From contig JAZDHG010000073.1 in the NCBI GenBank assembly GCA_043806135.1, forward strand, positions 1 through 63,177: a DNA stretch of 63,177 nt, read 5' to 3'. Shown here piece after piece: positions 20,382-62,004 of the stretch. The DNA is from Candidatus Omnitrophota bacterium. GTDB taxonomy: Bacteria > Omnitrophota > Gorgyraeia > B26-G9. The translations under genes were made by a program, and so were the position numbers. The first letter of the stretch is position 1, and the number at the start of each line of letters is the position of its first letter. The notes below the pieces were generated by a model, which saw only the letters and a list, made by a program, of their open reading frames with translations, had not been told where the DNA came from and did no database searches.

Positions 20382-20382
20382 T

Positions 20383-27281: not shown

Positions 27282-27315
27282 TTCTTTCCTTACTAATTAC
27301 AAGGATAAACAATAA

Positions 27316-28353: not shown

Positions 28354-28687
28354 TACGGACTTAGCCCTGACATATTTCTGCGCAAAAATTTCCCCCATTA
28401 TCTCTCTTGAAGTTCAGTTTAATTGAGAAAAAACCAAAAATATTGGTTCTTTCTTGTTTAGAGTGGCAGAAAGAACCTGGACAATCGCTGCAATCTGTTT
28501 TTCATCAGTGTAATCATGGGCCATTATTGTTTCTATCTAACCACTTCACTCTTATTGTGTTCCAGAAATTCTTTCACCCTAAATAAGAATGGCCCAAAAT
28601 ATTCAGCTTGTTAATAATTTAGGACAATGATAAAATGGGATTGTTGTGAAACACAGGCCTACACAGATAATTAGGGAGAGAGCAGAA

Positions 28688-45066: not shown

Positions 45067-45141
45067 TGCCCCGTGGTGTAATTGGTAACACGCTTGATTC
45101 TGGATCAAGTATTCATGGTTCGAGTCCATGCGGGGCAGCCA
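45067..45141 (+). tRNA. tRNA-Gln (anticodon CUG), CCA encoded
   Basis: The 75-nt cloverleaf has acceptor TGCCCCG/CGGGGCA, anticodon loop TTCTGGA, T-arm CATGG-TTCGAGT-CCATG and the 3' end GCCA. Confidence 0.93.
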
Positions 45142-45461: not shown

Positions 45462-47090
45462 CTATGCTTTGAGCAGTTCCTGCCAAAGTTCTTGTTGTTT
45501 TTGCCAGTCAGGTTGATTGATTATACTGCGCAGTTTGTATTCCGGAATTTTATTAAGTTTAAATATTCCGAAAAATAGGATTTCCTCTTGAATGCGTGGA
45601 GAGATAAGCAGCATGTTCATTATTTGGTCTATTCGAATATGTCTTAAGTTCAGCCATTCGCTGGCTTTTTGCAAACTCTTTATTTGGCCTGTATCTCTAA
45701 GGCGCTGTATGTGGTGGGCAAGTAATAGATTTTTACGGATTGTAGGCTCTTTTTTAATTTTAGTTACCTTATTAAATTTATTAAGCGATCTCACTTTTTT
45801 TAAGTTTACTTCAAATTCAAAGTGTTGATTATTTTCATTTAAGGTGATTCCCAATTGTTTACTTTCTTGGTTATAATCAATTCTTTTTAATAAAGCTCTT
45901 AAAATCCTGCGTTTTTCTTCAGGGTATAAAGTTTCCCAAACAGGAGACATGAGGGCAGTAATTTCTTGTTTGTGCGGATGTTGGGGGTCAGGCTTATTAG
46001 CAAAGATTATTTTTAAATTCTCAAGCACCGCGTTTTCTATTGCCTGTGAATTTATTGATCTGGTAGGGCAAGTTGCATAGCCGCGCTTTTGCGCGCTGGT
46101 GCAAAGGTAATAGCGGTATTTACGTAAATCTTTTTTTAAGGTATAAGTATGAAACATCAATGTATTGCAGGTTTTGCAATGCAAGAGTTTGCTAAGCAGC
46201 CCAGTGCATTCTGTATTTTTCGTAACTTTTCTTTCTCTGCGATTTAGCTTTAAGGTCTCTTGCGCAGCATTAAAAGTCTCCTCGTCAATAATCGCTTCAT
46301 GTTGGCCATTATATATTTGCCCTTCATAGTTTACCTTTCCGATATATAAAACATTACGGATGATGGATTGAATGTGGGTTACGCCAAACGTTTTTCCGCC
46401 AAATGATTTTCCTGTTTTATGAATAGAGTATTTTGTTCTAGTGCCTTTATTATTTAGTAGTTTGGCTACTTGTAATAATGACTTAACTTTTAAATAAAGA
46501 TCAAAGATTTCTTTTATCAGTTTAGATTCTTCAGGATTAATAACTAAGCGTTTATTTTCTCGATCAATATCAAAACCCAAAGGAGGCCTACCGCCTAACC
46601 ACTGGCCTCTTTTACGGGCAGCGCCCATTTTATCTTTAGTACGTTCACTGATAAGTTCTCTTTCAAATTGCGCAAAGGAAAGCAAGATATTAAGAGTAAG
46701 CCGACCCATGGAGGAATTAGTATTAAAATGTTGGGTCACTGATACAAAGGTGACATTATGCTGATCAAAAAACTCTAGCAGCCGAGAAAAGTCCAAGAGG
46801 GATCTGGATAATCTGTCTACCTTGTATACTATAACGCAATCCGCGGTATGATTCTTGATTGCGGCTAAAAGTTTTTTAAGCGCTGGTCTTTCAAGATTAG
46901 CTCCGGTAAAGCCGCCGTCATTATATTGTTCTTGAAGCGCAATCCATCCTTCTGATTTTTGACTGGCAATATAGTTTTCCGCGGATTCTCTTTGCGCGTC
47001 AAGAGTTGTAAAATCCTGATCCAAGCCTTCGGATGTAGACTTGCGGGTATAAATCGCGCAATATATTCTTTTCTTTTGTTTAGCATCCAT
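45462..47090 (-). CDS. Large serine recombinase (resolvase domain + recombinase domain + zinc ribbon)
   Basis: IYCAIYTRKSTSEGL (catalytic Ser region), VYKVDRLSRS, and the Cys clusters LHCKTC..YYLC..CP are present. I prefer the ATG at 47090. Confidence 0.9.
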   Translation of the reverse strand: MDAKQKKRIYCAIYTRKSTSEGLDQDFTTLDAQRESAENYIASQKSEGWIALQEQYNDGGFTGANLERPALKKLLAAIKNHTADCVIVYKVDRLSRSLLDFSRLLEFFDQHNVTFVSVTQHFNTNSSMGRLTLNILLSFAQFERELISERTKDKMGAARKRGQWLGGRPPLGFDIDRENKRLVINPEESKLIKEIFDLYLKVKSLLQVAKLLNNKGTRTKYSIHKTGKSFGGKTFGVTHIQSIIRNVLYIGKVNYEGQIYNGQHEAIIDEETFNAAQETLKLNRRERKVTKNTECTGLLSKLLHCKTCNTLMFHTYTLKKDLRKYRYYLCTSAQKRGYATCPTRSINSQAIENAVLENLKIIFANKPDPQHPHKQEITALMSPVWETLYPEEKRRILRALLKRIDYNQESKQLGITLNENNQHFEFEVNLKKVRSLNKFNKVTKIKKEPTIRKNLLLAHHIQRLRDTGQIKSLQKASEWLNLRHIRIDQIMNMLLISPRIQEEILFFGIFKLNKIPEYKLRSIINQPDWQKQQELWQELLKA

Positions 47091-47118
47091 TTTTATCTGT
47101 GTCCATCTTTCTCTTCGC

Positions 47119-47222
47119 AATCAGTGTTCATCTATGTTGCTATTTAAATCTGTGCTAATCTGTGTCTTTATGTGAATCAGTGTTGATCTGTGCTGCTTTT
47201 AAAATCAGTGTTAATCTGTGCA
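47119..47222. repeat. Four tandem 28-bp units, each with two ATC[AT]GTG-like half sites 10 bp apart
   Basis: Units start at 47120, 47148, 47176 and 47204, with second half sites at 47130, 47158, 47186 and 47214. The array fills the spacer between the DUF2924 and recombinase genes. Confidence 0.85.
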
Positions 47223-47723
47223 TTATAAGTTGAAGAACAAATACCCATTCCAATGTGCTCCGGTTACCTCTTTTGCAATGGCAGTTAGGCTTCTGTATTG
47301 CTTCTTGTTATATTCAAAACCTTTTTCAAGAACCTTAATCTCCAAGTGAATGTCCTTGTATTCCTTAGTAATGATGGTACCAGGAATAGGCAGGCGCCTG
47401 TCCCGAGCGAAGTCGAGGGGCTTATCCCGGGAGCCTGTATTATCAGTATTGCCTGTAGGCCGAAGGGCCTTATTATTTACTGGGTCGTATTTTTGGATAA
47501 ACTCCTCAATCTTGCCTTGTGCTTGGCTGGAAAGCCCTCCGTGTTCAAGTTCCTGCAGTTTATAGGCAATCTTACGCCATAAATAGACTTTATTGCTTGG
47601 TGTGGCGCTTTCTGGGCCATATAAGACCTTATATTTGACCTTTAGCTCTGACAATGTGTAATCTTTATGCCCCATAATTTCCATGAGTTTTGTTTGTTCC
47701 ATAATTATCTCCTTTGCTGTCAT
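47223..47723 (-). CDS. DUF2924-family protein (usual partner of large serine recombinases)
   Basis: The C-terminus ..GFEYNKKQYRSLTAIAKEVTGAHWNGYLFFNL is characteristic of the family. It lies directly upstream of the recombinase on the same strand. Confidence 0.8.
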   Translation of the reverse strand: MTAKEIIMEQTKLMEIMGHKDYTLSELKVKYKVLYGPESATPSNKVYLWRKIAYKLQELEHGGLSSQAQGKIEEFIQKYDPVNNKALRPTGNTDNTGSRDKPLDFARDRRLPIPGTIITKEYKDIHLEIKVLEKGFEYNKKQYRSLTAIAKEVTGAHWNGYLFFNL

Positions 47724-48079: not shown

Positions 48080-48526
48080 ATGGCTGACCAATGGACAGGA
48101 CGATCTGCTCGTCAAATAGCACTAATCATATGCGGGTGTACAACACTTTGTGTTTTTGGAATAATGACCATATGGGTTCTACTTCACTTGTTAACAAATT
48201 TTTCAGAACAAATTCCCCCTCTAGCTTTACTTGCAGTTTTTATAGGTTTGATGTTGGGCTTACTTTCAACTTCACATTTTCTGGTAGGGCTAGTTATAGC
48301 AAATGATAATATTTTTTGTGCTTCAGGTAATCCGGAAGCGATGACAAAAGCTCTTCATAAAAGCTTTTTTTTGCAAGGTCAAATTTTTCTATCTATTTTA
48401 ATTGTTACTACTATCAGCGTATTGATGATAACTAAATTAGTAGAAGTTTCTCAAGGTCTTCTTATTATAACAGGGGCAGTTGCTTTTGCCTTAGGACAAA
48501 ACTTTGTTGACAGAAAAAACAACTAA
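48080..48526 (+). CDS. Hypothetical four-TM membrane protein
   Basis: It has four hydrophobic segments and an RBS aaggagaag. No family recognised. Confidence 0.55.
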   Translation: MADQWTGRSARQIALIICGCTTLCVFGIMTIWVLLHLLTNFSEQIPPLALLAVFIGLMLGLLSTSHFLVGLVIANDNIFCASGNPEAMTKALHKSFFLQGQIFLSILIVTTISVLMITKLVEVSQGLLIITGAVAFALGQNFVDRKNN

Positions 48527-48617
48527 ATTCTAACGAATCTATTCACCTAACTGGTGGGTACCTGGATTTGGGTTCAACTCAGCAGGTGATATTTATGTTG
48601 GTGATAGATAATAAAAT

Positions 48618-49421
48618 ATGTCAGACGAAAAAATTAAAAATTTTATTGAAACTGGCGCAGAAATGAGTGGCGGAGCTATAGGCGGTGCCATAGGATTTCT
48701 TCTAGGCGGTCCCGCAGGAGCTATTATCGGAGGAGGTGCTGGTCCTCTAATTACCAAGGGAGCAAAAAAAATATTAGGAGATTTAGCAAATCGCCACATG
48801 TCACATAAAGAGATTGAAAGAGTAGGTGCAGTAGCAGCAATAGCTTTAAACAAAATAAAAAACAAACTGGAAAATGGTGAAAAACTTAGAAATGATAATT
48901 TTTTTTCGGAAGATGCTTCAAAAAGATCTTCAGCTGAAGAAATTTTTGAAGGGATTTTGCAGAAAAGTAGAAATTCTTACGAAGAAAAAAAGGTTAAATT
49001 TTTGGGTAATTTCTTTGCAAATCTTGCTTTTATTCAAAACGTAAGTATAGGAGAAGCAAATTGTTATTTAAATCTTATAGATTCTTTATCATATCGTCAA
49101 ATTTGCACATTAGCTTTGTTGCTTGCAAAAGATCGTCTTAATCCACCAGCAATTTTAAGACAAAACAATTATAGTAATGTGCCAGGATTAAGCTATGAAT
49201 TAATTTCATTATTACAAGAAATCTTTTCTCTTTATACAAACAGCATTATTAAATGCAAAAAGAAAAGTGGGAATGGGCATGTTGCGCTTCTAAGCTGGAT
49301 AGATATAGTTCCCAACAACTTAGAATTAACATTTACAGGAAAACGCTTTTCGATATTATTGGGTTCGCTAGAAGAAATTGAAGCAAATGATTTTAATAAC
49401 ATTATTAAATTGTTACGTTAA
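48618..49421 (+). CDS. Hypothetical protein with an N-terminal glycine-zipper segment
   Basis: GGAIGGAIGFLLGGPAGAIIGGGAGPLI is followed by a ~200-aa soluble-looking domain. No family recognised. Confidence 0.55.
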   Translation: MSDEKIKNFIETGAEMSGGAIGGAIGFLLGGPAGAIIGGGAGPLITKGAKKILGDLANRHMSHKEIERVGAVAAIALNKIKNKLENGEKLRNDNFFSEDASKRSSAEEIFEGILQKSRNSYEEKKVKFLGNFFANLAFIQNVSIGEANCYLNLIDSLSYRQICTLALLLAKDRLNPPAILRQNNYSNVPGLSYELISLLQEIFSLYTNSIIKCKKKSGNGHVALLSWIDIVPNNLELTFTGKRFSILLGSLEEIEANDFNNIIKLLR

Positions 49422-49489
49422 CAACTCATTCCACCTAACTGGTAGAAGTGCTTAAGTGTAATTTATAATTACTGTTAAGAGAGGGAACT

Positions 49490-49672
49490 ATGAAGAAGAT
49501 TCTGGAGTCATATACTGTTGATGAAGTAGCAGGGGCTCTTAAGTTGCATCCTTATACTGTGCGCCGCTTATGCCGTGAAGGAAAAATTCCTTGTTTTAAA
49601 TTTGGGGGACAGTGGAGATTGAGGAAAGATGAGATGGAAAAATGGTCGAAGAAAAAAGAAAAAACAAAATAG
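49490..49672 (+). CDS. Excisionase/AlpA-type (MerR-superfamily) HTH protein
   Basis: YTVDEVAGALKLHPYTVRRLCREGKIPCFKFGGQWRLRKDEMEKW, 60 aa. Confidence 0.75.
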   Translation: MKKILESYTVDEVAGALKLHPYTVRRLCREGKIPCFKFGGQWRLRKDEMEKWSKKKEKTK

Positions 49673-49673
49673 A

Positions 49674-52616
49674 GTGATAACGAAATACCACGCAAAATAT
49701 TTTGCTTATGAATTAACTAAGAGATGTGCTTCTGACAATCTTGAGAAGTTGTCATCGACACTTTCTAATGCGCAGGTTGATCTTAATCCTCATCAGATTG
49801 AGGCTGCTCTTTTTGCCTTCCGTTCGCCCCTTTCAAAAGGCGCTATTTTAGCGGATGAAGTAGGGCTTGGAAAAACAATTGAAGCAGGATTGGTTCTTTC
49901 TCAAAAATGGGCCGAGAGGAAGAGGAAAGTACTTTTAATCGTTCCAGCAAACCTGCGAAAGCAATGGAATGCTGAACTTCAAGAGAAGTTTTTTATTCCC
50001 TCTATTATCCTTGAGGCAAAATCATTTAATCAATACATAAAAGATGGCAATCTCAATCCCTTTGATCAAGAAGATGTAATTGTTATTTGTTCGTACCATT
50101 TTGCACGTTCAAAATCGCCTTATATAAAACCGATAAAATGGGATCTAGCAGTTATTGACGAAGCACACCACCTTAGAAATGTATATAAGACTAGCAATAA
50201 AATCGCAAAAGAAATAAAAGAGACATTGAGCGAAGTGCCCAAAATTCTACTCACTGCAACACCTCTTCAAAACTCTCTTCTTGAACTCTATGGTCTTGTA
50301 AGTGTTATCGATGAACATGTCTTTGGGGATCTAAAAAGCTTTAAAGTCAACTATTCGCGGGTTTCAAAAGAACAAGATATCTATGAAAATGAACTTGGTT
50401 TAGTTGAGCCACGGCAAGAAATGTTTATGGAGTTAAGAAATCGTTTAAAGCCGGTTTTCACTCGTACTTTGCGCCGGCAAGTCTTGGAATACATCAAATA
50501 TACTAAACGTATCCCATTAACACAGGATTACATACCTTCAGAGCAAGAGATAGAACTTTACAATAGAATGTCTGAATATCTTCAGCGACCTGTTTTATTT
50601 GCGTTACCTTCTAGTCAGCGCCAATTGATTACGCTCATACTTCGTAAATTATTAGCGTCATCTTCCTTTGCCATCGCCAGTACACTTAATAACTTGGTAT
50701 TTAAAATAAGTAAAGTCATAGAGGAAGCTGAGAAACAATTACTTGAAGAAGAAACTAGCATACAGGGACTTGAAGAAGATATTGAAAATTACGATGAACT
50801 TGAAGACGAATGGAGCGATGAGGAAGAAGAGGAAGATGATGAGAAACCAAAGAAAAGGATAGTCTATACCAAAGAAGATATTGCTTTAATGAAGGAGGAG
50901 AAGGCCGACCTTAAGAAAAATCGTGATTTGGCCAAGAAGATTTGGAAGAACTCCAAAGGAGAGGCGTTAATGATTGCTTTAAAGAAAGGCTTTGAGATGG
51001 CTGCGGAATTGGGGGCTAAAAGAAAAGCAATCATTTTTACGGAGTCTAGGATTACTCAAGACTACCTTTTAAAGCTTCTTTCAGAAAAAGGGTACGATGA
51101 TAAGATAGTTCTATTTAACGGTTCAAATAACGATGATAAATCAAAATTAATTTATAAAGAATGGGCAGAAAAGAATCGTGACAGCGATAAAATTACAGGA
51201 TCAAAAACGGCAGATAAACGAGCCGCTATTATAGATTACTTTAAAGATGAAGCAGAAATCATGATTGCTACCGAAGCTGGTGCTGAGGGCGTTAATCTTC
51301 AGTTTTGCTCACTGCTTATAAATTATGATTTACCTTGGAATCCTCAGCGCATTGAACAAAGAATTGGCAGATGTCATAGATATGGCCAGAAGTATGATGT
51401 AGTTGTTATAAATTTTATAAATCGTAAGAATGCAGCAGACCAAAGGGTTTATGAGCTTTTAGACCAGAAATTTAATCTTTTCAAAGGTGTTTTTGGGGCA
51501 AGTGATGAAGTTTTAGGAAGCATTGAATCGGGTGTCGACTTTGAAAAAAGGATAGCCGCCATTTACCAGACATGCCGCTCAGAGGATGAAATTAATGTGG
51601 CATTTGATGCCCTTCAAAGCGAGATGGATGAAAGCATCAAGAATAATTTACAAGACACCCGCCAAAAGTTACTTGAGAATTTTGATTCAGAGGTTCATGA
51701 AAAATTAAGAATTAACATAAGGGAAAGCCAGCTATTTTTAGATATCTATGAAAGATGGCTATGGGATACAACACATTATTATCTTAAGGATAATGCCGAT
51801 TTTTCTGAACATGAATATTCTTTCACGCTTAAGACTAATCCCTTTCCTGAAGAAGATATCCACCAGGGGCCTTATAGAATCGGAAAGAATATTGAAGATG
51901 CGCATATATATCGTCCCGGACATCCTTTAGCGCAAAAAATTCTTAACGCAATTAAAAAACAGAATGTTGAGGAAGCCGAAGTTATTTTTAATTATTCCAA
52001 TAATCCGACAATCATTTCTGTATTAAAGCCTTTTATTAACAAAAGTGGGATTTTGAAAGCAAGCAATTATACAATTGAGTCTTTAGAATCGGAGGACCAT
52101 GTCATCATTGCTGTTTTAGATGATAAAGGGGACGTAATAGACAATGATGTTGCCAAGAAGTTATTTTCTCTTAAAGCTGAAGTTAAAAACGATAAATCTG
52201 CAATATCAGAGGATCAAATACGTAAACTCGATATTTTAGAGCGAGAAATCATAAATCTTATAACAACTCGCAGCGCTGAACGTAATAGCGAATTCTTTGA
52301 TAATGAAGTAGATAAACTGGATAAATGGGCGGATGATATGAAAAAGGCCCTTGAGTTGGATTTAAAAAAGCTTGATATTGATATAAAGACTTTAAGGACA
52401 ACTGCTAAGAAACTTCTAAATCTTGAAGAAAAAATAAAAGAGCAACGCAGGATAAAAGATATGGAAAAAAAACGCAATGAAATGCGCAAAAAGTTATACG
52501 ATGCCCAAGATGAGGTTGATAATAGAAAAGAAGAGCTTATTCAGCGAGTCGAAGCTCAACTTAAACAAAAGACTTCTTTGAATGAGTTATTTAAAATTCA
52601 CTGGAAAGTTGTTTGA
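49674..52616 (+). CDS. SNF2-family helicase/translocase with a ~300-aa C-terminal extension ending in a coiled coil
   Basis: The N-terminus is ITKYHAKYFAYELTKR. LADEVGLGKTIEAG, VIDEAHHLRN, LLTATPLQNS and helicase-C (NYDLPWNPQRIEQRIGRCHRYGQ) are present. I prefer the GTG at 49674, 1 nt after the HTH stop. Confidence 0.9.
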   Translation: MITKYHAKYFAYELTKRCASDNLEKLSSTLSNAQVDLNPHQIEAALFAFRSPLSKGAILADEVGLGKTIEAGLVLSQKWAERKRKVLLIVPANLRKQWNAELQEKFFIPSIILEAKSFNQYIKDGNLNPFDQEDVIVICSYHFARSKSPYIKPIKWDLAVIDEAHHLRNVYKTSNKIAKEIKETLSEVPKILLTATPLQNSLLELYGLVSVIDEHVFGDLKSFKVNYSRVSKEQDIYENELGLVEPRQEMFMELRNRLKPVFTRTLRRQVLEYIKYTKRIPLTQDYIPSEQEIELYNRMSEYLQRPVLFALPSSQRQLITLILRKLLASSSFAIASTLNNLVFKISKVIEEAEKQLLEEETSIQGLEEDIENYDELEDEWSDEEEEEDDEKPKKRIVYTKEDIALMKEEKADLKKNRDLAKKIWKNSKGEALMIALKKGFEMAAELGAKRKAIIFTESRITQDYLLKLLSEKGYDDKIVLFNGSNNDDKSKLIYKEWAEKNRDSDKITGSKTADKRAAIIDYFKDEAEIMIATEAGAEGVNLQFCSLLINYDLPWNPQRIEQRIGRCHRYGQKYDVVVINFINRKNAADQRVYELLDQKFNLFKGVFGASDEVLGSIESGVDFEKRIAAIYQTCRSEDEINVAFDALQSEMDESIKNNLQDTRQKLLENFDSEVHEKLRINIRESQLFLDIYERWLWDTTHYYLKDNADFSEHEYSFTLKTNPFPEEDIHQGPYRIGKNIEDAHIYRPGHPLAQKILNAIKKQNVEEAEVIFNYSNNPTIISVLKPFINKSGILKASNYTIESLESEDHVIIAVLDDKGDVIDNDVAKKLFSLKAEVKNDKSAISEDQIRKLDILEREIINLITTRSAERNSEFFDNEVDKLDKWADDMKKALELDLKKLDIDIKTLRTTAKKLLNLEEKIKEQRRIKDMEKKRNEMRKKLYDAQDEVDNRKEELIQRVEAQLKQKTSLNELFKIHWKVV

Positions 52617-52635
52617 TTTAAAATGAGAGGAAGTT

Positions 52636-54282
52636 ATGAGCAATAAGAAACAAAAGCTTGAATTAACGTGGATTGGTAAAGACGAGCAGATAAATCTTGA
52701 ACCACGTATTTTAATCAAGGATTCCGAAAAATCTTATGGAGATAAAAGTACTGATAATATGCTTATTTATGGTGATAACCTTTTAGCCCTTAAGGCACTT
52801 GAGCAAGGGTTCTCTAATAAGATCAAATGTGTATACATAGACCCTCCTTATAATACAGGGAGCGCCTTTGAACATTATGATGATAATTTGGAACATTCTT
52901 TGTGGTTAAACTTGATGAAACCACGGCTTGAAGTAATACATAAATTATTAAAGGATGACGGGATTTTATGGATTTCAATTGACGACGAAGAGTGCCATTA
53001 TTTAAAAGTATTGTGTGATGAAATATTTGGACGAAAAAATTTTATTACTTCAATAGCTGTTAAGATGTCAACAGCTAGCGGAGTTAAAACATCCCATAGA
53101 GATAAAACGATCATTAAAGAAAAAGAATATATATTGGTTTATGCTAAAAACAAAGATAGAATCAAACTCAATCCCCAGTATGTGCAACAATTAGATTGGG
53201 ATTCCGAATTTCAGTATATGCTAGAGAAGAATGATTCTAAAGATCCTGAAAAGTGGGAAATTAAAAAGCTGAGAGATGTCCTAAAGGCTAAAGGAATACC
53301 TGAAGATCCGAAGGATAAGAGATTTGAACAATTTGTCATTAGCAATTCGGATAAAATTTGGAGACGTGCGTTTATAAGAAGTAAATATAAAGAATTATCA
53401 CAAAAAAATCCAGACAAGATATTTCACGTAAATGAAAACGATATAGAGCATTACTATTATAGAGGTAGAGAGATGTATTTTTATAAAAACAAGTTTCATG
53501 AATGTTTTTCTGAAGAGGGGACAATAAATTCTCCGAGCCATTTGTTAGGGGATTTTTGGATCGATATTAATACAGGAAAATTATTTAATGAAGGTGGAGT
53601 AGATTTCCGTAATGGGAAAAAACCGGAGTTCTTAATTGGTCGCATATTGGCCCTTTGTACAGAATCTAACGATTTTGTTTTGGATTCTTTTTTGGGATCT
53701 GGGTCTACGGGGGCAGTGGCTCAAAAAATGGGTAGGAGATGGATAGGGATAGAGTTGGGTGAACATTGCCACAGCCACAGTATCCCACGTTTAAAAGCTG
53801 TTATTGATGGCAACGATCTTGGGGGAATTTCTAAAGCGGTTGATTGGAAAGGTGGAGGTGGTTTTAAATATTATTATCTTGCGCCTAGCTTACTTAAGAA
53901 AGACAAATATGATAATTGGATTATTGATGAAAAATACAATGCTGACATGTTAGCAGCTGCTATGGCGAAGCATGAAGGATTTAAATATTGTCCCAATGAA
54001 GAGATATACTGGAAACAGGGCCAATCAACGGAAAAGGATTTTATATTCACCACAACGCAATTTGTTACCGTTGAGTTACTTGATAAAATAAATGAAGAGA
54101 TGAAAGATGGAGAAAGTCTTCTTATTTGCGCAAAATCTTTTCAAAAAGTATGTGGGGATAAATATTCTCAAATTACGGTTAAAAAAATACCTCAGATGTT
54201 ACTCGGTAGATGTGAGTTTGGCAAAGAGGATTACAACTTAAATATAATAGATTTACCTGAGGAAGGCGAAGAAGATGAATAA
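52636..54282 (+). CDS. Type III Mod-like N6/N4 DNA methyltransferase, paralog 1
   Basis: Motif IV CVYIDPPYNTG (DPPY at 52840-52851) precedes motif I LDSFLGSGSTG, which is the beta-class order. A conserved ~170-aa C-terminal domain is shared with paralog 2. Confidence 0.9.
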   Translation: MSNKKQKLELTWIGKDEQINLEPRILIKDSEKSYGDKSTDNMLIYGDNLLALKALEQGFSNKIKCVYIDPPYNTGSAFEHYDDNLEHSLWLNLMKPRLEVIHKLLKDDGILWISIDDEECHYLKVLCDEIFGRKNFITSIAVKMSTASGVKTSHRDKTIIKEKEYILVYAKNKDRIKLNPQYVQQLDWDSEFQYMLEKNDSKDPEKWEIKKLRDVLKAKGIPEDPKDKRFEQFVISNSDKIWRRAFIRSKYKELSQKNPDKIFHVNENDIEHYYYRGREMYFYKNKFHECFSEEGTINSPSHLLGDFWIDINTGKLFNEGGVDFRNGKKPEFLIGRILALCTESNDFVLDSFLGSGSTGAVAQKMGRRWIGIELGEHCHSHSIPRLKAVIDGNDLGGISKAVDWKGGGGFKYYYLAPSLLKKDKYDNWIIDEKYNADMLAAAMAKHEGFKYCPNEEIYWKQGQSTEKDFIFTTTQFVTVELLDKINEEMKDGESLLICAKSFQKVCGDKYSQITVKKIPQMLLGRCEFGKEDYNLNIIDLPEEGEEDE

Positions 54283-54328
54283 AATAGCTGCTGGTATTAG
54301 GAATCGCCTATGGTTAGAGACTCTTTGA
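54275..54328 (+). pseudogene. 17-codon remnant of a res 5' end left behind the first mod gene
   Basis: MNKIAAGIRNRLWLETL* compares with the intact Res N-terminus MNKIATAIRNRLSLRPPQ. It has the same overlap geometry with the mod stop (GATGAATAA). Confidence 0.6.
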
Positions 54329-54339
54329 AGGAGGAAGCA

Positions 54340-55929
54340 ATGAATATTAAGAAACAAAAGCTTGAATTAACTTGGATTGGCAAAGATGAACAAATAAATC
54401 TTGAGCCGCGTATATTGATTGAAGATCCAGTAAAATCATATGGTGATAAGAGTGCTGAGAATATGCTTATATATGGGGATAATCTTTTAGCGCTTAAGGC
54501 ATTAGAACAAGATTATTCGAATCGAATAAAATGTGTTTATATCGATCCTCCGTACAATACCGGCTCTGCGTTTGAGAGTTATGATGATGGTATCGAGCAT
54601 TCTTTGTGGTTAAGTTTAATGCGATCTAGGCTTGAAGTTTTATATAAGTTATTATCAACGGAGGGCATTATTTACATTCAGATTGATGACAGAGAGCAGG
54701 CGTACTTGAAAGTTTTATGTGATGGAATATTTGGTCGAAAGAATTTTGTTTGTACATTTATATGGAAAGCACGAAGCGGTCAAGGGAATACTGTAGGCCA
54801 TATAGCGGAATTTCATGAGTATATTTTATGTTATGCAAAGGATATAACTAAAATCTCGTTCAAAAAGATTAAAAATGTCGCTAAACAAGGGAATTACGAA
54901 GATGAGATAAGTTTTTACAAAAGAGAGCAATTGAGGCAATGGGGACAGGGTGATAGACGAGAAGATAGGCCGACAATGTTTTATTCAGTTATGGCTCCTG
55001 ATGGCAAAGAAATATATCCGAAGAGACCCGATGGGTCAGAAGGTAGATGGAGATGCAGCAAAGAAAAGATGGCTGAACATTTAGGCAATAACGATGTCGA
55101 TTTCGTGAAGGATAATGATGGTGATTGGAATTGCTATAAAAAAATACGTGCAGGACGAATTACTTATTCAGCATATGGAACATTGCTAGACGATTTTGGA
55201 ACAGCTTCTAATGGGACCAAAGAACTAAAAGAACTATTTGAAGGGAATAAAGTCTTTGAAACTCCTAAACCGGAAGCGTTGGTTGCACACTTAATAAATT
55301 TAGTTTCTGATGAAGGAGATATCGTATTAGATTCATTTGCTGGCTCAGGGACAACAGGAGCTGTTAGCCACAAAATGAAGAGAAGTTGGATTATGGTCGA
55401 ATTACATAATCATTGTCACACAGTCATTATCCCAAGATTGAGAAAAGTTTGTGACGGCGCGGATAAGGGCGGGGTCTCTACAGCTTTAGCTTGGAAAGGT
55501 GGAGGTGGGTTCAAATTTTATGAACTAGCTCCAAGCCTTCTAAAAAAAGACAAGTATGATAACTGGATAATTGAGGAAAAATACAATGCGACCATGTTAG
55601 CAGCTACAATGACAAAACATGAAGGCTTCAAATATTGCCCTGATGAACAAATTTATTGGAAACAGGGACAATCAACAGAAAAAGATTTCATATTTACAAC
55701 TACACAATTCGTCACTGTAGAGTTTTTGGATAAGATAAATGAAGAAATGAAGAACGAAGAAAGCCTTCTAATCTGTGCTAAGTCTTTTCAAAAAGCATGT
55801 AATGATCGATATCCGCAAATAACTGTTAAGAAAATACCCCAGATGTTGCTTGGCAGATGTGAATTTGGGAAAGAAGATTACAAATTAAACATAATAGACC
55901 TACCTGAGGAGGGCGAAGGAGATGAATAA
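54340..55929 (+). CDS. Type III Mod-like N6/N4 DNA methyltransferase, paralog 2 (different TRD)
   Basis: CVYIDPPYNTG and LDSFAGSGTTG are present. The N- and C-terminal thirds are near-identical in protein to paralog 1, and the central ~230 aa are unrelated. ATG at 54340 with RBS gaaggagg. Confidence 0.9.
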   Translation: MNIKKQKLELTWIGKDEQINLEPRILIEDPVKSYGDKSAENMLIYGDNLLALKALEQDYSNRIKCVYIDPPYNTGSAFESYDDGIEHSLWLSLMRSRLEVLYKLLSTEGIIYIQIDDREQAYLKVLCDGIFGRKNFVCTFIWKARSGQGNTVGHIAEFHEYILCYAKDITKISFKKIKNVAKQGNYEDEISFYKREQLRQWGQGDRREDRPTMFYSVMAPDGKEIYPKRPDGSEGRWRCSKEKMAEHLGNNDVDFVKDNDGDWNCYKKIRAGRITYSAYGTLLDDFGTASNGTKELKELFEGNKVFETPKPEALVAHLINLVSDEGDIVLDSFAGSGTTGAVSHKMKRSWIMVELHNHCHTVIIPRLRKVCDGADKGGVSTALAWKGGGGFKFYELAPSLLKKDKYDNWIIEEKYNATMLAATMTKHEGFKYCPDEQIYWKQGQSTEKDFIFTTTQFVTVEFLDKINEEMKNEESLLICAKSFQKACNDRYPQITVKKIPQMLLGRCEFGKEDYKLNIIDLPEEGEGDE

Positions 55930-58597
55930 AATAGCAACCGCCATTAGAAATCGCTTGAGTTTACGGCCTCCACAGACAGATAGTTTGAATATATTAGCTG
56001 ATCTCGCTGATAAATTGACTCTTCAAAAGAATTCAAATCTTCATGAAGCGCTTCAAAAGGTCAAGAGCGCTTATCCTATATGCTCTGATTTTGAAAGAGA
56101 TTTTCCATCCATTTGTTTTGCAATCGCTACCGGTGTAGGCAAAACCAGACTAATGGGAGCGTTTATCGCTTATCTCTATTTAGAAAAGGGGATAAAGAAC
56201 TTCTTTGTTTTGGCTCCTAATTTAACTATTTATAACAAATTAATCACTGATTTTTCCAATCCAGCGCATCCTAAGTATGTGTTTCAAGGCATTGGAGAAT
56301 TTGTTAATAATCGACCACGCATTATTACCGGTGAAAATTATCACGAGGCACGACAGTTAACTATTTTTGAATCAGAAGTTCATATTAATGTCTTTAATAT
56401 ATCCAAGATTAATGCTGAAACTCGGGGCAATAACGCTGTTCGTATAAAGAGGCTATCTGAATACATTGGAGATTCCTATTTCAATTATTTATCCAATCTA
56501 AAAGACTTGGTTTTGCTCATGGATGAATCTCATCATTATCGTGCGGATAGAGGAATGCAGGTTATTAACGAGTTGAATCCGATATTAGGCTTAGAGCTAA
56601 CGGCAACTCCTCAGGTAGAACGTGCTGGCGGAGCTATAAAATTCAAGAATGTTGTTTATGAGTATTCATTATCAAAAGCTATTATAGATGGGTTTGTAAA
56701 AGAACCCGCGGTAGCAACGCGGAAGAATTTCGATCCTAGTCATTATTCAATAGATGAATTAGATCAGCTTAAATTAGAAGATGGTGTTCGTATTCATGAA
56801 GATACTAAGGTCGCTTTAGATATTTATGCGAGGGACAAGAAAACTCAGTTAGTTAAGCCATTTGTGCTTGTTGTCGCAAAAGATACTACACATGCAGGAA
56901 AGCTTATGGAATTAATTTCTTCCAAAGCCTTTTTTGATGGATATTATGCGGATAAAGTAATGGAGATTCACTCCAACCAACGTGGAGAAGAAAAAGACGA
57001 AAACATTGCTCAATTATTGTCTTTAGAAGATTCCAATAACAAGATAGAAATAGTTATTCATGTCAACATGCTTAAAGAAGGATGGGATGTTACAAATTTA
57101 TATACAATTATTCCACTTCGAACAGCAGCATCGATGACTTTAAGGGAACAGACGATTGGTAGAGGGTTAAGATTGCCGTATGGAAAACGAACAGGTACGG
57201 ATAAAATCGATAAGCTTACAATTGTTGCCCATGATAGATTCCAAGAGATTATTGAGGAAGCAAATAAACCGGGATCAATTATTCGAAGAGAAAATGTTAT
57301 TGAAATTGATACTGAAGATTTAAGTCAGCCAAAAGAGGTAATGACCTCAACTTCGAACTTAGAGCAAGAAATTGCTGAAGAAGAAAAGCGCATTGAAGGG
57401 ATAATAAACCCAGAGGAAAAACACCAGGCAATACTTAATAATAAAGCAAAAGAGACTATAGTAGAAATGTTGCCGGAGTTAAGTGGTTCTGTAAGCAGTA
57501 TTCATCAACTTAATAAGACTGAAATCAAAGAGATTGCTATCCAAAAGATAAAGGAAAAAATATTAAGTGCTCCACAGCCTGATTTATTTGCAGGAGACAT
57601 GATTAAAGAAATAGAAGCGGTGTATGAGACGATAGTTAACAGTTTTGTAAAGAATGTTATTGAAATACCACGTATTATTATTCAGCAAAGTGACAAGGTG
57701 CTATCTGGCTTTAAGAATTTTAACCTTGAGGTTGGCAGCTTGAATTATCAGCCAGTATCAGAGGAAATATTAGTAAAAAAGCTTAGAGAACAGGATAATG
57801 CGTATGACACGATTATTGGTGGCGGGAAAATTGCAATTGATCATCCTGAAAGAATAATTGTCAATGAACTTATTAATGCTCCAGAGGTCGAATATGATAA
57901 GCACGCAGATTTACTCTTTAAGCTGGCAAATCAGGCTATCGATAAGTTCAAAACCTATTTGGATTCAGAAAAAATAATCAATGTTGTTCAGTATCATAAA
58001 CGTGAAATAGGCCGGTTTATTCACTCTCAACTTATGGAGCATTTCTATTTTGAAGCCCCGGAGTTTGAGAAGCCTATTATAAAGCCATTTTCAAAAATAG
58101 AAGAACATAACTTTTCTAAGTACACAAAGGACAAGATCCATCATTTCACAGATACTATTACTCCAACAAATTCTATTCCAACTAAGGTGTTTAGTGGTTT
58201 TCAAAAAGCATGTCACACATTCTATAAATTTGATTCAAAAACAGAGAAGGATTTTGCAATTATTTCAGAAAATGATACCGATGTATTAAAGTGGCTCAGG
58301 CCAGCCCAAAGTCAATTCAATATTTACTGGAAGCATAATTCTCGGCAATATACTCCAGATTTTGTTGTTGAAACCCAAGATTCAATTTATATGGTTGAGA
58401 CCAAAAAAGAAGGAGATATTGAGACATCTGACGTTCAGGCCAAGTCTAAAGCGGCGTTAGAATATTGTAAAAATGCAACTAAATTTACAACAGAACATGA
58501 TGGAAAGCCTTGGAAGTATGTATTGATCCCCCATAATGCTGTTCTAATTAATATGGGGTTTAGCACTCTAATGAGCAGATTTGCTTATGGATCCTAA
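55922..58597 (+). CDS. Type III restriction enzyme Res-like subunit (SF2 helicase + C-terminal PD-(D/E)xK nuclease)
   Basis: Walker A IATGVGKTRLMG, DEAH-like LLMDESHHY and the nuclease motif YTPDFVV..MVETKK (58349-58405) are present. Its start overlaps the mod2 stop by 8 nt. Confidence 0.9.
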   Translation: MNKIATAIRNRLSLRPPQTDSLNILADLADKLTLQKNSNLHEALQKVKSAYPICSDFERDFPSICFAIATGVGKTRLMGAFIAYLYLEKGIKNFFVLAPNLTIYNKLITDFSNPAHPKYVFQGIGEFVNNRPRIITGENYHEARQLTIFESEVHINVFNISKINAETRGNNAVRIKRLSEYIGDSYFNYLSNLKDLVLLMDESHHYRADRGMQVINELNPILGLELTATPQVERAGGAIKFKNVVYEYSLSKAIIDGFVKEPAVATRKNFDPSHYSIDELDQLKLEDGVRIHEDTKVALDIYARDKKTQLVKPFVLVVAKDTTHAGKLMELISSKAFFDGYYADKVMEIHSNQRGEEKDENIAQLLSLEDSNNKIEIVIHVNMLKEGWDVTNLYTIIPLRTAASMTLREQTIGRGLRLPYGKRTGTDKIDKLTIVAHDRFQEIIEEANKPGSIIRRENVIEIDTEDLSQPKEVMTSTSNLEQEIAEEEKRIEGIINPEEKHQAILNNKAKETIVEMLPELSGSVSSIHQLNKTEIKEIAIQKIKEKILSAPQPDLFAGDMIKEIEAVYETIVNSFVKNVIEIPRIIIQQSDKVLSGFKNFNLEVGSLNYQPVSEEILVKKLREQDNAYDTIIGGGKIAIDHPERIIVNELINAPEVEYDKHADLLFKLANQAIDKFKTYLDSEKIINVVQYHKREIGRFIHSQLMEHFYFEAPEFEKPIIKPFSKIEEHNFSKYTKDKIHHFTDTITPTNSIPTKVFSGFQKACHTFYKFDSKTEKDFAIISENDTDVLKWLRPAQSQFNIYWKHNSRQYTPDFVVETQDSIYMVETKKEGDIETSDVQAKSKAALEYCKNATKFTTEHDGKPWKYVLIPHNAVLINMGFSTLMSRFAYGS

Positions 58598-58679: not shown

Positions 58680-60968
58680 ATGGCATTGAAGAAGATAAAA
58701 TATATTAATAATATTGATGCTTTTGATTCCTTTAGCTGGGATGCGGAGGATTGTAAGAGGTTCAACCTGATTTATGGATGGAATGGGTCAGGAAAAACTA
58801 CCTTATCTAGGATTCTAAACTTCCTTGAGCGGAAAACAATTCATATTCCAGAGCTTAAGGCTATTGATTTTACAGTTTATGCGGATGAGGGCATGGTCAA
58901 AAAACAAGATGTGGAAACAAACTCCCAGAATATTCGCGTCTTCAATGAAGATTTTATTAACGAGAATCTCACGTTTGATTCCTCAAAAGCCAAGAAAATC
59001 ATCATTGTTGGGAAAGACAACATTGATGCCAAGAAGAAGCTGTCTGAGTTGGAGGGTAATTTAAAGACGAAAGAAGGCGAGATATCCGCGCTGGAAGACC
59101 AGCTTCCAAAAGTCGGAAAACTGGATTTGATTCTAAAAGATGCAGGAAGTGAAGTCCCAAAACAATTTGGTAATACACCTCTGGCAAATGACCAATATTA
59201 TGGACGAAGTTATAACAGGAGTAAAGTTGAGGCACGCATAAGCAATGGTATAGTGAGCGAAAGCAATTTGTCGTCATTAATTATTTCCGATCCTGCAGGA
59301 ATTGAAGCAAAGAAAGAAATTGTAAGAAGCGAGAAAAAGAAAATCGATTTGGTTTTAAAGGAGATTTCTGATTTCTCGAAGCTGTTCCAAGGCGCGAATG
59401 AATTGCTGGGTGTTATTGTTTGTTTTGAGAATATAACCGAGCTTGAAAGTGATAGGCTGCTAAGAGACTGGACTGAAGTCGGATATCGTTTGCATAAGGA
59501 TAGAAAACTGGATTCATGTAAATTCTGCGGCAATACCTTGCCCAAAAGTCGGATGGATCGATTGGGAAAATTTTTTACTGATGAGCTTCAGAAAGTCAAA
59601 GAACAAATTGATATGACCGTTCAATCATTGGGCTTTGATTCAAGCGAGCTTGAGGTTAACCTCGATTCGAGCGCGTTATTTCCGGAACTCGCTAAGGAAT
59701 ATATTGGACTGCATTCTACTATTAAAGACTCAGGTAAAATCCTGCTTGATAAAATTCGATCTTTGCGAGAGAGCCTTATAAGTAAAAAAAGTAATCTTCA
59801 TGAATCTACCAAGAAATTCCAAAGCGTTGTGTTCCCGAAAGAGTCTTTTGATGGCATTAACGCGGCAATAAAAAGAATAAATGCCATTGTTGTCCAGCAT
59901 AATGCTCGGATTGATGTTATTGAAAGTGAAATCAAGCAGGCGGCCGAAGCAATTGAATTACACATAATTGCAACTACCTTGTCCAGCAGGGAGTATTTTA
60001 CTAAAAAGAGGGAGGCGGTAGAACTTGAGGCAAAGATAAGTATTCTTAAAAGTGATCGCGCTAGCTTGCTCGAACAAATCAATACTCTCAAAGCTAAATT
60101 ACACAATGCTTCAGATGCCTTAAATAAAATAAATCAAATTCTAAAAGACTTCTTTGGTGAATCGTATATTTTTCTTGAAATTTTTGAGCTTGCAGATGGC
60201 GGGGTTGGATATGCGCTTAAACGGCGTGGTAAAGAGACAAAGCATTTAAGTGAGGGGGAAAAGAGCATTTTAGCTCTTGTGTATTTTCTTGTTAAACTTG
60301 AGGAAGATGGATTTGATAAAAGTAAGGCCATTGTTGTTATTGATGATCCGGTGGATAGTCAGGATGGAAATTTCTTGTTTCGGACTTATGGGTTTTTAAA
60401 GCGATATTTGAAAGCTGTGCATCAGCTTATTATCCTAACGCACAACTACGAGTTTTTTAATCTGATCAGAGATTGGTTGTGCGAGCAGAGATTTTGCGAT
60501 GAATCGCATTTATTCATTATAAATCGGATAGGCGTTGAGGGGAAACAGGTCGTCAATATCGAAAACTTACCTATTCTGCTTAAAGAGTATAAAACAGAGT
60601 ACCATTATTTGTGTTGTAGGCTATTCCAATATGTTAATGACACTAGTCTGATTGATGCCCCATTGGTGGCGAACATTGGTCGGAAGGTATTGGAAAATTT
60701 TGCCTCGTTTAAGTGGTCTTGTAAAAGCACAGAACAATTCGCTAATATCATCCTTAACAGGTTTGTTAATAGCGATGATCATTTAAAAAAAGCTACGGGT
60801 GATTTTGTCTTAAAATTTTTACATGAATACTCGCATGGGAGAGATTTCTCGCGAGCAATATCAGCATCAGCGCTTGAATCAAAAGCTATCGCTAAAAATG
60901 TTCTTGAATTCATTAGATTTGCTGATAAAGATCACTACGATCATTTAAAAGGCTTGTGCTCTTACTAA
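58680..60968 (+). CDS. AAA_13-family ATPase, RloC/PrrC-like candidate anticodon nuclease
   Basis: Walker A GWNGSGKTT, a long coiled-coil insert with CKFC (59517-59528), the signature LSEGEKS and Walker B VVIDDPVDSQD are present. The C-terminal region has R-x3-E (60681-60695) and downstream His residues. Confidence 0.75.
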   Translation: MALKKIKYINNIDAFDSFSWDAEDCKRFNLIYGWNGSGKTTLSRILNFLERKTIHIPELKAIDFTVYADEGMVKKQDVETNSQNIRVFNEDFINENLTFDSSKAKKIIIVGKDNIDAKKKLSELEGNLKTKEGEISALEDQLPKVGKLDLILKDAGSEVPKQFGNTPLANDQYYGRSYNRSKVEARISNGIVSESNLSSLIISDPAGIEAKKEIVRSEKKKIDLVLKEISDFSKLFQGANELLGVIVCFENITELESDRLLRDWTEVGYRLHKDRKLDSCKFCGNTLPKSRMDRLGKFFTDELQKVKEQIDMTVQSLGFDSSELEVNLDSSALFPELAKEYIGLHSTIKDSGKILLDKIRSLRESLISKKSNLHESTKKFQSVVFPKESFDGINAAIKRINAIVVQHNARIDVIESEIKQAAEAIELHIIATTLSSREYFTKKREAVELEAKISILKSDRASLLEQINTLKAKLHNASDALNKINQILKDFFGESYIFLEIFELADGGVGYALKRRGKETKHLSEGEKSILALVYFLVKLEEDGFDKSKAIVVIDDPVDSQDGNFLFRTYGFLKRYLKAVHQLIILTHNYEFFNLIRDWLCEQRFCDESHLFIINRIGVEGKQVVNIENLPILLKEYKTEYHYLCCRLFQYVNDTSLIDAPLVANIGRKVLENFASFKWSCKSTEQFANIILNRFVNSDDHLKKATGDFVLKFLHEYSHGRDFSRAISASALESKAIAKNVLEFIRFADKDHYDHLKGLCSY

Positions 60969-61032: not shown

Positions 61033-62004
61033 TTGTTATCGAGCATATTCAAAAATAACGCTATATTAAAAACAAGAGCACTGGATGGAGATTTTTTAAA
61101 ATCACTGTCTTCCGGTGAATTAAAATATTTATTGGCTGAAATCAAAAGAGATAATGAATTGTGTCTGTGTTTCAGGGGGACGTATGTAAATGTTTATTAT
61201 AAGGGAGGAAGCTTATTTAAGATCCAAAGAAACAGTGGATATTGCAAAATTATTTTTGATTTTAACTATGCTAGATATACAAAAGATTTTACGCAGCGTC
61301 TTGGTGCGTTGCAGGAATTAGGATTTAGGTATTTTATAAGTAAAGATGCAAAACACAGAAAGATCATTTGCAAGTATCCTCAAGAGAATAAAGCGGGTGC
61401 TTATTTTTGGCAAGAATCCATAAGATTATTAAAGGGCTTAATTGATGATTTTTCTGACATGGAAAAGACGGACAACTTATTTAGCAGTAATACTAAAAGA
61501 AAGAAAAAGGATAATTTAGAAAAACAAAGACAGCAAGAAATAATGCTGGCGAATAGTATGCTTGACGGTGAATATTTTATCTATGACATGGAATATGATC
61601 AACCGCGCAATTCTTCCAAGGAAGAGAAGAGCGGAAGGTTTGATATGCTTGCGTTGCGCCGAGTAACAAGTGGATGTTACAGCCTGGTCTTTATTGAGTT
61701 AAAAAGCACAAAGGAAGCGTGTAAGGGAGTAAGCGGGATAGGAAAACATTATAATGATTTAAAAAAATATATTTCTATTGAGAATATTATAAATACTCGA
61801 AGAGAAGATGCAAAAGCTATTTGTAAACAATATTTCAATTTGGGGCTAATCAGAATGGGGGAGATAATAATTGATAAAGAAGAGATACTTTTTGTTTTTA
61901 CTGATGAGGCAATAAAATATGCTCAGGAAATTAAAAACCCGCTTGAGAAGTGTATTTTGTCGTCCGAAGATTTAAGGCTGAAGTTTAATAATGGGATATT
62001 ATGA
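61033..62004 (+). CDS. Hypothetical protein with a PD-(D/E)xK-like motif
   Basis: GRFDMLAL..(18 aa)..FIELKS gives D at 61642 and ExK at 61696-61704. The start is a TTG and is uncertain. Its stop overlaps the ATG of the next gene (ATGA). Confidence 0.45.
   Translation: MLSSIFKNNAILKTRALDGDFLKSLSSGELKYLLAEIKRDNELCLCFRGTYVNVYYKGGSLFKIQRNSGYCKIIFDFNYARYTKDFTQRLGALQELGFRYFISKDAKHRKIICKYPQENKAGAYFWQESIRLLKGLIDDFSDMEKTDNLFSSNTKRKKKDNLEKQRQQEIMLANSMLDGEYFIYDMEYDQPRNSSKEEKSGRFDMLALRRVTSGCYSLVFIELKSTKEACKGVSGIGKHYNDLKKYISIENIINTRREDAKAICKQYFNLGLIRMGEIIIDKEEILFVFTDEAIKYAQEIKNPLEKCILSSEDLRLKFNNGIL

Follow-up and report, generated by a model that had tools for sequence, protein, structure and literature searches.

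A DrmD/RapA-like SNF2 ATPase as a likely partner of type III Mod and Res, seen from a genomic island of Omnitrophota

Type III restriction-modification (RM) has been a two-subunit paradigm for about fifty years, and a locus in an Omnitrophota genome raises the question of what an SNF2 ATPase does beside the two subunits, Mod and Res. The locus lies on contig JAZDHG010000073.1 (assembly GCA_043806135.1), and the window is the whole 63,177-nt stretch of this contig. According to the open reading frame (ORF) list and the sequence, against which the coordinates were checked, five plus-strand ORFs between 49490 and 58597 encode a small helix-turn-helix (HTH) protein, an SNF2 protein, the methyltransferases Mod1 and Mod2, and Res. 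The stop codon TAG of the HTH gene occupies 49670-49672 and, one base on, GTG at 49674 starts the SNF2 ORF. SNF2 and Mod1 are separated by 19 nt (52617-52635), Mod1 and Mod2 by 57 nt, while Mod2 and Res overlap by 8 nt (55922-55929). A first-pass annotation, made by a model from the sequence alone, had described this layout with the same gaps, and the coordinates were confirmed along with intact catalytic motifs; it had proposed a five-gene defense system in which SNF2 would cooperate with Mod/Res, for example in remodelling or loading. We consider it likely that the locus is a three-component variant of type III RM, in which the DrmD/RapA-like SNF2 protein is a dedicated partner of Mod and Res, located on a serine-recombinase island at a tRNA-Gln gene.

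Relatives of the SNF2 protein were sought in one genome per GTDB species. At least 573 were found, and the best 80 of them, with 51-88% identity, were fetched with their loci. Mod and Res were present on the same strand downstream of SNF2 in 51 of the 52 loci having at least 8 kb of downstream sequence, and Mod was already present in 10 of the 12 loci with 3-8 kb. As an internal control, the 8-10 kb upstream of SNF2 contained a Mod or Res homologue in none of 41 loci. Three contigs from different phyla all showed the order SNF2-Mod-Res, and the SNF2-to-Mod gap was 17 nt or less in 16 cargo-free loci. In the converse direction, all 23 PLSDB plasmids with a full-length Res homologue also matched SNF2, which was situated upstream of Mod-Res in the four plasmid regions inspected (one Salmonella, Sphingopyxis, Ketogulonicigenium and Paracoccus). 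A metagenome sample of 80 loci was found by Res alignment, of which the 29 with at least 9 kb upstream were counted; 27 had the same SNF2 clade upstream and a 28th (L126) carries a divergent SNF2. Order and strand are fixed across phyla, chromosomes, plasmids and islands, and in Conchiformibius the linkage is kept despite an altered order, Mod-Res-SNF2. This arrangement is far beyond chance and, judged by gene content, the linkage across many phyla is near-obligate whether counted from SNF2 or from Res. The genome-wide association of the SNF2 clade with Mod/Res, which the first-pass annotation had named as a check on its idea, is strong in other genomes.

The conserved core, on the same kind of evidence, is three genes, SNF2, Mod and Res, and the proposal of a five-gene system was not supported. 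Iterated hidden Markov model searches of small ORFs recovered HTH_17 upstream of SNF2 in 3 of 75 genome loci, and the HTH gene was rejected as a conserved component. Among 98 other complete loci just one, L082, has a second full-length Mod. Replicons of Salmonella, E. coli/Klebsiella and Cupriavidus also carry the HTH gene upstream of SNF2. Its product further matches the excisionase-type model TIGR01764 (2e-12) and the NCBIfam MAD1 model (44 bits, cut-off 80), and it is a probable transcriptional controller. PGAP gives the copy in E. coli APEC E16002 (L176:4001-4201) the MADS name 'MAD1'. The 18.5-kb region around it has no further annotated MADS gene, so the NCBIfam MAD1 equivalog also captures the regulator of the SNF2-type III locus, an annotation pitfall. 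Deletion of mad1 had little effect in MADS, where MAD6, MAD7 and MAD8 are mandatory. In the window, weak matches to MADS were given by the HTH protein (mad1, 8e-6) and by the AAA_13 protein encoded downstream of Res (mad3, 3e-12; mad8, 2.6e-4); the mandatory MAD6-8 are absent and MADS membership was rejected.

The interval between SNF2 and Mod behaves as a cargo slot. It contains 0.5-4.9 kb in 45 of 65 loci, and in the other 20 the gap is 137 nt or less. The 63 intervening ORFs grouped into 34 unrelated clusters, including RhuM, AAA_15 with OLD-TOPRIM, Schlafen/AlbA_2, AIPR, YhcG/DUF1016, DUF3800, GmrSD, Bro-N, M78 with HTH_3, DUF2130, HNH and SMC-like ATPases (examples among the related loci L007-L086 and L095-L174 are L008:7429-10688, L042:4731-6449 and L082:12853-14658). 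Such families are the classic repertoire embedded in RM and BREX operons. Near-identical backbones of E. coli and Salmonella differ in their cargo, with IS256 and Abi in one and Abi and AIPR in the other, and in the window the slot is occupied by the extra Mod. Several slot clusters lacking any Pfam match (among them a 156-aa protein at L013:12950-13420, a 497-aa protein at L033:8197-9690 and a 470-aa protein at L077:12843-14255) could be candidate undescribed defense genes.

These data bear on the idea that SNF2 is an independent gene, either a stand-alone defense gene or part of an island backbone, which merely clusters with RM genes. Clustering is general among defense genes, variable cargo intervenes before Mod in most of the loci just described, and the HmaA SNF2-nuclease protein alone is antiviral against phage T4. 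The counts of 51/52 downstream versus 0/41 upstream, with 23/23 and 28/29 in the converse direction, argue against it, as does an SNF2-Mod-Res order and strand which is fixed across phyla and replicon types. The SNF2 protein, moreover, has no nuclease domain in a Pfam-type family scan, and a recombinase is present in only few loci. We regard this explanation as highly improbable.

The SNF2 clade accompanies type III genes of three classes. Class A, to which the window and 40 of 52 loci belong, combines Mod PDLC03636 with Res PDLC03648, a Res which is marginally similar to that of EcoP15I (7e-6), in the helicase part only. Class B has Mod PDLC03634 and Res PDLC03647, which contains the RE_endonuc domain and is homologous to EcoP15I Res over its full length (1.4e-65). 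Class C, consisting of a 1046-aa Mod (PDLC03646) and a 1120-aa Res (PDLC03654), is found on E. coli/Klebsiella IncF plasmids and, in the altered order, in Conchiformibius. Because the same SNF2 clade is also positioned beside EcoP15I-like Mod/Res, SNF2 recurs as an added gene beside type III systems of at least three classes, and the earlier statement that a second motor is not part of the type III scheme needs qualification. A neighbor-joining tree arranges the SNF2 subclades in part by Res class, and several switches are seen. Near 42% identity the SNF2 clade passes gradually into another locus type, that of Hymenobacter, where Mod-Res is replaced by an AAA ATPase of 1210 aa and a DNA methyltransferase of 1113 aa; this locus is taken to be BREX-like.

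The N-terminus of the window SNF2 protein, MITKYHAKYFAYELTKR, agrees with the consensus of 20 homologues. The protein is composed of SNF2-rel_dom (1.1e-33) and Helicase_C, with motifs I, II, III and VI intact (GLGKT64, DEAH162, TATP194 and QRIGRCHRYGQ562). Its helicase core begins at about residue 40, with no N-terminal Tudor domain. The NCBIfam model DrmD_b aligns end-to-end (21-860 of 868) at 695 bits, under the cut-off of 950, and the model DrmD gives 234 bits against a cut-off of 610; further PADLOC matches are BrxHI/HII (2e-59) and HmaA (1e-50). Among solved structures, E. coli RapA is the closest relative (4e-41 in sequence comparison and the top Foldseek match). The alignment begins at about residue 133 of RapA, hence the N-terminal domains of RapA are missing. 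The AlphaFold model of the full-length protein is poor, with a predicted local distance difference test score (pLDDT) of 52.6, and for that reason its Foldseek matches beyond RapA were not trusted.

An unassigned C-terminal extension of about 300 aa with a coiled coil had been pointed out in the first-pass annotation, and it is real. When the C-terminal 291 aa were modelled with 41 diverse homologues, the pLDDT reached 93.8. The predicted fold is an alpha+beta domain with an inserted antiparallel coiled-coil hairpin of about 110 residues, followed by a final strand which returns into the sheet. No significant structural match to this module was found in PDB (best E = 0.059) or among BFVD viral structures (best E = 0.0095), and as PDB gave none, the C-terminal domains of RapA were not recovered. 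The module has 1697 representatives at E ≤ 1e-3, many of them short fragments; in full-length matches (about 940-1045 aa) it is situated at the C-terminal end, and the NCBIfam DrmD models cover it too. It is well conserved: many of its residues are invariant, and identity ranges from 70% to about 30%. The whole SNF2 protein has more than 120 cluster representatives with 73-92% identity, all of about 980 aa, from Omnitrophota, Patescibacteria, Deltaproteobacteria, Brocadiia, Elusimicrobia and others; an exact-sequence look-up of the window protein returned no record. This spread over phyla is, as far as sequence comparison tells, the signature of a horizontally transmitted cassette.

The C-terminal module also bears on the thought that SNF2 guards the RM genes, sensing phage anti-restriction proteins or DNA mimics and restoring or redirecting defense in the way PrrC backs EcoprrI. 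A module matching nothing in PDB or the viral structure library would suit such a sensor, and RM-linked backup genes are common in SNF2-Mod-Res loci, but sensor domains are typically fast-evolving while this module is well conserved, and the SNF2 protein has no effector domain. This explanation is barely credible.

Both Mods contain the N6_N4_Mtase domain (PF01555, about 1e-43), and Mod1 matches the Mod of EcoP15I at 1.7e-29. DPPY69 is found in both, FLGSG352 in Mod1 and FAGSG333 in Mod2, and the N-terminus of Mod2, MNIKKQKLELTWIGKDEQ, parallels that of Mod1. The two proteins are 57% identical overall in a mosaic pattern. Identity is about 80-90% over the N-terminal ~145 and the C-terminal ~200 residues, whereas the center, roughly residues 150-330, cannot be aligned. 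Going by EcoP15I and phase-variable mod alleles, this central variable region would be the target-recognition domain. In nucleotide sequence the conserved parts share only 75-90% identity, so the pair is not a fresh duplication, and the Mod pair of L082 has the same mosaic pattern. Two specificities would thus be served by one Res, with Mod1/Mod2 heterodimers possible. That Res supplies both a superfamily 2 (SF2) motor and a PD-(D/E)xK nuclease, as had been claimed, was borne out by its ResIII (7e-22) and Helicase_C domains and a TnsA-like nuclease at residues 798-851, with the motifs GVGKT71, DESH201, QTIGRGLR410 and PD812...ETK828 intact.

An exact 16-nt match, TTTTCAAAAAGCATGT (peptide FQKAC), was observed between the 3' part of Mod2 (55785-55800) and that of Res (58198-58213), and Mod1 has a copy with one mismatch at 54138-54153. 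This sharing may be chance in AT-rich DNA.

The resemblance to classical type III enzymes (EcoP15I and EcoP1I, Mod2Res1-2) lies in a beta-class Mod that has the motifs DPPY and FxGxG and carries its recognition domain in the center, and in a Res with SF2 helicase and C-terminal PD-(D/E)xK nuclease whose gene is overlapped by mod. The type III features are found in the window in both genes, with Res directly after mod, and PADLOC, whose RM models are REBASE-derived, files the Mod and Res genes as type III. By definition, type III enzymes also cleave DNA with ATP at two unmethylated sites in inverse orientation, hemimethylate asymmetric sites and need no product beyond Mod and Res; the linkage counts argue genetically for a third partner, SNF2, with one SNF2-less locus (L161) known. 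The window differs from the classical enzymes in the conserved SNF2 gene before mod and in its two Mod paralogues, and class A differs from EcoP15I in that its Res is almost never found without an SNF2 gene.

Several known systems combine an SNF2 protein with an N6-methylase, and the locus might accordingly be a reduced or divergent member of DISARM class 1, ARMADA, BREX type 3 or BR/Hma and no type III system. DISARM class 1 is defined by the SNF2 protein DrmD, the adenine methylase DrmMI (pfam13659) and the core DrmA, DrmB and DrmC. The window shares with it an SNF2 gene beside an adenine methylase, the DISARM methylase marking asymmetric sites, and an SNF2 that is DrmD-like over its full length, including the C-terminal module, although it scores under the cut-offs of both NCBIfam DrmD models. 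However, no DrmA, DrmB (DUF1998) or DrmC (PLD) was detected among the window ORFs scanned, where the only match to the DrmA model is SNF2 itself; the methylases are of PF01555 and the effector is a single type III Res. DISARM class 1 membership was rejected on the missing triplet and the methylase family, in agreement with the first-pass annotation. ARMADA has the same three-part logic, an SNF2 ATPase (ArmA), an N6-methylase (ArmB) and a helicase-nuclease effector (ArmC), but its ArmB is PglX-like and its ArmC is of the YprA/DUF1998 type. The window lacks DUF1998 and ArmD, its Res is ResIII/REase_III and its Mods are PF01555, and ARMADA membership was rejected as well. BrxHII of BREX type 3 and the BR/Hma systems likewise pair a RapA-like SNF2 with an N6-methylase, and the window SNF2 matches the BrxHII and HmaA models. 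With no BrxC/DUF499 ATPase, no PglZ and no nuclease-fused SNF2 at the locus, and an SNF2 with no Tudor domain at its N-terminus, BREX-3 and Hma membership was also rejected.

A bridge to these systems is provided by the hybrid locus L126 (1464-12679), which joins a BR/Hma-like 1090-aa methylase of the DUF1156 type, the divergent SNF2 (936 aa) and a YhcG nuclease to a class A Res, with no type III Mod, and suggests that Res can serve as effector for another SNF2 and methylase module. This hybrid and the SNF2 model matches speak for membership in one of the four systems. The methylases, which are type III Mods and neither pfam13659 nor PglX-like, the DrmD_b score under its cut-off and the window ORFs without YprA speak against it, and we find such membership very unlikely. 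CglI/NgoAVII-type enzymes (PMC5861437) offer a precedent for a long-range DNA motor as a separate polypeptide, the H subunit; there the motor is DEAD-Z1, not SNF2, and the R subunit is helicase-free, whereas the window Res keeps its SF2 motor.

The first-pass annotation could not say whether the architecture already had a name, and it appears to have none. PADLOC v2, NCBIfam release 20 and PGAP assign only generic names to the triad genes ('SNF2-related protein', 'site-specific DNA-methyltransferase', 'DEAD/DEAH box helicase family protein'). Triads of SNF2, N6-methylase and effector have been described in DISARM class 1, ARMADA, BREX-3 and BR/Hma, and ietAS has an SNF2 add-on. A triad of SNF2 with type III Mod/Res was not described in the literature searched, which excluded REBASE and most subscription journals.

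How the SNF2 motor could work with Mod and Res may be outlined as follows. As in EcoP15I, Mod dimers would place methyl groups on a single strand of short asymmetric sites, and Res would take its sequence specificity from Mod. The two Mod paralogues would present common Res-facing and dimer-facing ends with different recognition domains, and because they differ in these domains and keep the common ends, the system is proposed to read two motifs with one Res. Res would supply the ATP-triggered switch and the PD-(D/E)xK cut. SNF2 would use its own C-terminal alpha+beta/coiled-coil module to dock on the Mod-Res complex, and its translocation on double-stranded DNA would drive, or clear the path for, communication between sites. 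As its translocation would serve this communication, SNF2 is proposed to be needed for restriction and not for methylation. The HTH_17 protein would be an optional transcriptional controller, and the RloC-like tRNA nuclease a separate second defense line on the same island.

Recruitment and translocation of SNF2 for restriction would be in line with ARMADA II, ietHAS, Hma and DISARM class 1. In ARMADA II, armA, encoding a DrmD-like SNF2, is required for defense, and in class 1 DISARM the joint deletion of drmD and drmMI nearly abolishes protection against phage Nami. Mutants of the SNF2 ATPase motif abolish defense in ietHAS, and such mutants were also tested in HmaA. A stronger statement would be that the DrmD-like SNF2 is the obligatory third subunit of a large unrecognized type III-like class, that the class A Res essentially never works without it and that SNF2, docked by a module not described before, replaces or drives the passive sliding by which classical type III enzymes communicate between sites; this we hold only tentatively.

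A different view places SNF2 on the side of modification and self-protection, where it would strip or reposition Mod-Res on host DNA, promote maintenance methylation after replication or alleviate restriction. [quoted passage not shown] Against this, loss of SNF2 or of its ATPase in ARMADA, Hma and ietHAS abolishes defense and causes no toxicity, and the N-terminal RNA-polymerase-binding region of RapA is absent from the window protein. We consider this view rather unlikely.

Several observations weigh against a dedicated SNF2 partner serving restriction. Unrelated genes intervene between SNF2 and Mod in about two thirds of the loci, so their strict co-translation is not required, and a scan for promoters and terminators was not above shuffled expectation (66 sites versus 54±8 and 13 versus 8.6±3.6). 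One class A locus, L161, has the order Mod-Fic-Res with no SNF2 within 10 kb. The tie of SNF2 to Mod/Res is one of genetic linkage, and physical contact is putative. SNF2 may affect restriction, or it may affect methylation and self-protection. The prototypes of EcoP15I-like systems work with Mod and Res alone, and as the clade accompanies such systems, SNF2 could act as an enhancer without being essential as a subunit. The EcoP15I-like neighbors, the SNF2-less L161 and the stripping of stalled complexes by RapA together leave room for an enhancer or self-protection role. A partner of Mod and Res acting in restriction is the reading we favor.

The position of the locus on its contig is summarized in Table 1. 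Matches of the Dxs protein place the host in Omnitrophota. The first-pass annotation had missed the recombinase and tRNA context and the AAA_13 gene downstream of Res. The serine recombinase and DUF2924 genes follow tRNA-Gln on the minus strand, and after them come two unassigned ORFs, the five genes from HTH to Res, the RloC-like gene and orf323. A close relative (L175; Dxs 92% identical) shares the synteny lexA...prfB-xseA-dxs-gltX-tRNA, after which it has unrelated genes with no recombinase, SNF2 or RM genes, the island being missing. On this tRNA and recombinase context and the island-free relative, the SNF2-Mod-Res locus is island cargo. The recombinase and DUF2924 pair also flanks the cassette in L001, L002 and L070. 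A direct-repeat search for the right-hand attachment (att) site found no copy of the tRNA end within the window, and the right end of the island is probably beyond the window end.

Table 1. Features of the tRNA-Gln island in the window, with the supporting matches.
Feature	Coordinates	Strand	Evidence
tRNA-Gln(CTG), left island boundary	45067..45141	+	ARAGORN; 75 bp 98.7% identical to close relative L175
Large serine recombinase, island integrase	45462..47120	-	Resolvase 9e-38, Recombinase 1e-16, Zn_ribbon_recom 3e-11
DUF2924 protein, serine recombinase partner	47223..47723	-	PF11149 1.3e-34
HTH_17/MAD1-like small DNA-binding protein, 60 aa, sporadic accessory	49490..49672	+	HTH_17 2.4e-15
DrmD/RapA-like SNF2 ATPase, 980 aa, GTG start, conserved third component	49674..52616	+	PADLOC DrmD 7e-208
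Mod1, type III beta-class N6-adenine methyltransferase, 548 aa	52636..54282	+	N6_N4_Mtase 6e-43; MTase_III PDLC03636 1e-164
Mod2, Mod1 paralogue with unrelated central recognition region, 529 aa	54340..55929	+	MTase_III PDLC03636 5e-173
Res, SF2 helicase and PD-(D/E)xK nuclease, 891 aa, class A	55922..58597	+	REase_III PDLC03648 3e-184
RloC-like anticodon nuclease (AAA_13), 762 aa, neighboring island cargo	58680..60968	+	AAA_13 1e-111
orf323, 323-aa protein, possibly PD-(D/E)xK nuclease, island cargo	61033..62004	+	motif by eye

The RloC-like gene starts 82 nt downstream of Res and also matches PDC-S06 (1e-140) and PrrC (8e-11). Its product has a Rad50-like ABC ATPase head with Walker A GWNGSGKT at 33-40, CKFC at 280-283 as its zinc hook, and a triad that reads R668-x3-E672-x46-S718-H719. 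The definition of RloC is met with in the literature as an ABC ATPase head split by a coiled coil with a CxxC zinc hook, a C-terminal R-x3-E-x36-52-(S)H and a length of 658-897 aa (PMC2610378), and the predicted 762-aa protein shows each of these features. In the same study (PMC2610378), only 8 of 73 RloC orthologues showed linkage to an RM locus of type I or III, which makes the window gene an uncommon cis-linked case. For orf323 no match was found in Pfam, PADLOC or NCBIfam; the pattern D204...E222-L-K224 is seen in its sequence and suggests a putative PD-(D/E)xK nuclease. The AAA_13 gene, orf323 and the two unassigned ORFs, orf148 and orf267, have no homologue in the 160 related loci and were for this reason rejected as parts of the system.

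The two unassigned ORFs, of 148 and 267 aa, are positioned between the recombinase module and the HTH gene (48080-49421, plus strand), with no family assigned; orf267 is glycine-rich, with weak tape-measure-like and YidB-like matches. A 25-nt direct repeat with 80% identity and the core CACCTAACTGGT was observed at 48531-48555, about 60 nt upstream of orf267, and at 49419-49443, some 50 nt ahead of the HTH gene. The repeat may serve the HTH protein as a common operator. Close to it, at about 49420-49434, is the inverted repeat TTGTTA-N3-TAACAA. Between gltX and tRNA-Gln, a fragment of an IS200-like Y1 transposase is present at 44117-44518 on the plus strand (PF01797, 2.9e-6, C-terminal part only), and the spacing that holds it is lacking in L175. 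Elsewhere in the window, at about 13700-28400 (plus strand), the chromosomal purine skew is unusually strong, with an AT skew of up to 0.39 and a GC skew of up to 0.29. Two tandem secretins are encoded in the stretch (13735-15516 and 18588-20381), together with a 1020-aa protein that has a C-terminal TPR repeat as its sole Pfam match and proteins of 570 and 778 aa with no Pfam match.

To our knowledge, site communication in type III enzymes by ATP-triggered one-dimensional diffusion has been worked out on EcoP1I and EcoP15I alone. The present data point to a three-gene form with a chromatin-remodeller-type motor in hundreds of species, including plasmids of Salmonella, E. coli and Klebsiella and E. 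coli chromosomes, which annotation tools split into 'RM type III' and an orphan 'DrmD/SNF2'. The role of the DrmD-like SNF2 in DISARM is listed as 'N/A', and it could be studied here in the simplest setting, beside a well-understood enzyme; it is directly testable because E. coli strains carry such loci, for example APEC E16002 (NZ_CP126944.1, 909905-920450), as does Salmonella pR18.1595_113k (NZ_CP100694.1, 6232-16247). The SNF2-Mod slot offers itself as a place to discover further defense cargo. If SNF2 is indeed an obligatory third subunit, a new RM subtype would be defined, and type III RM would be joined mechanistically with DISARM class 1, ARMADA, BREX-3 and Hma in a common design of SNF2, N6-methylase and helicase-nuclease.

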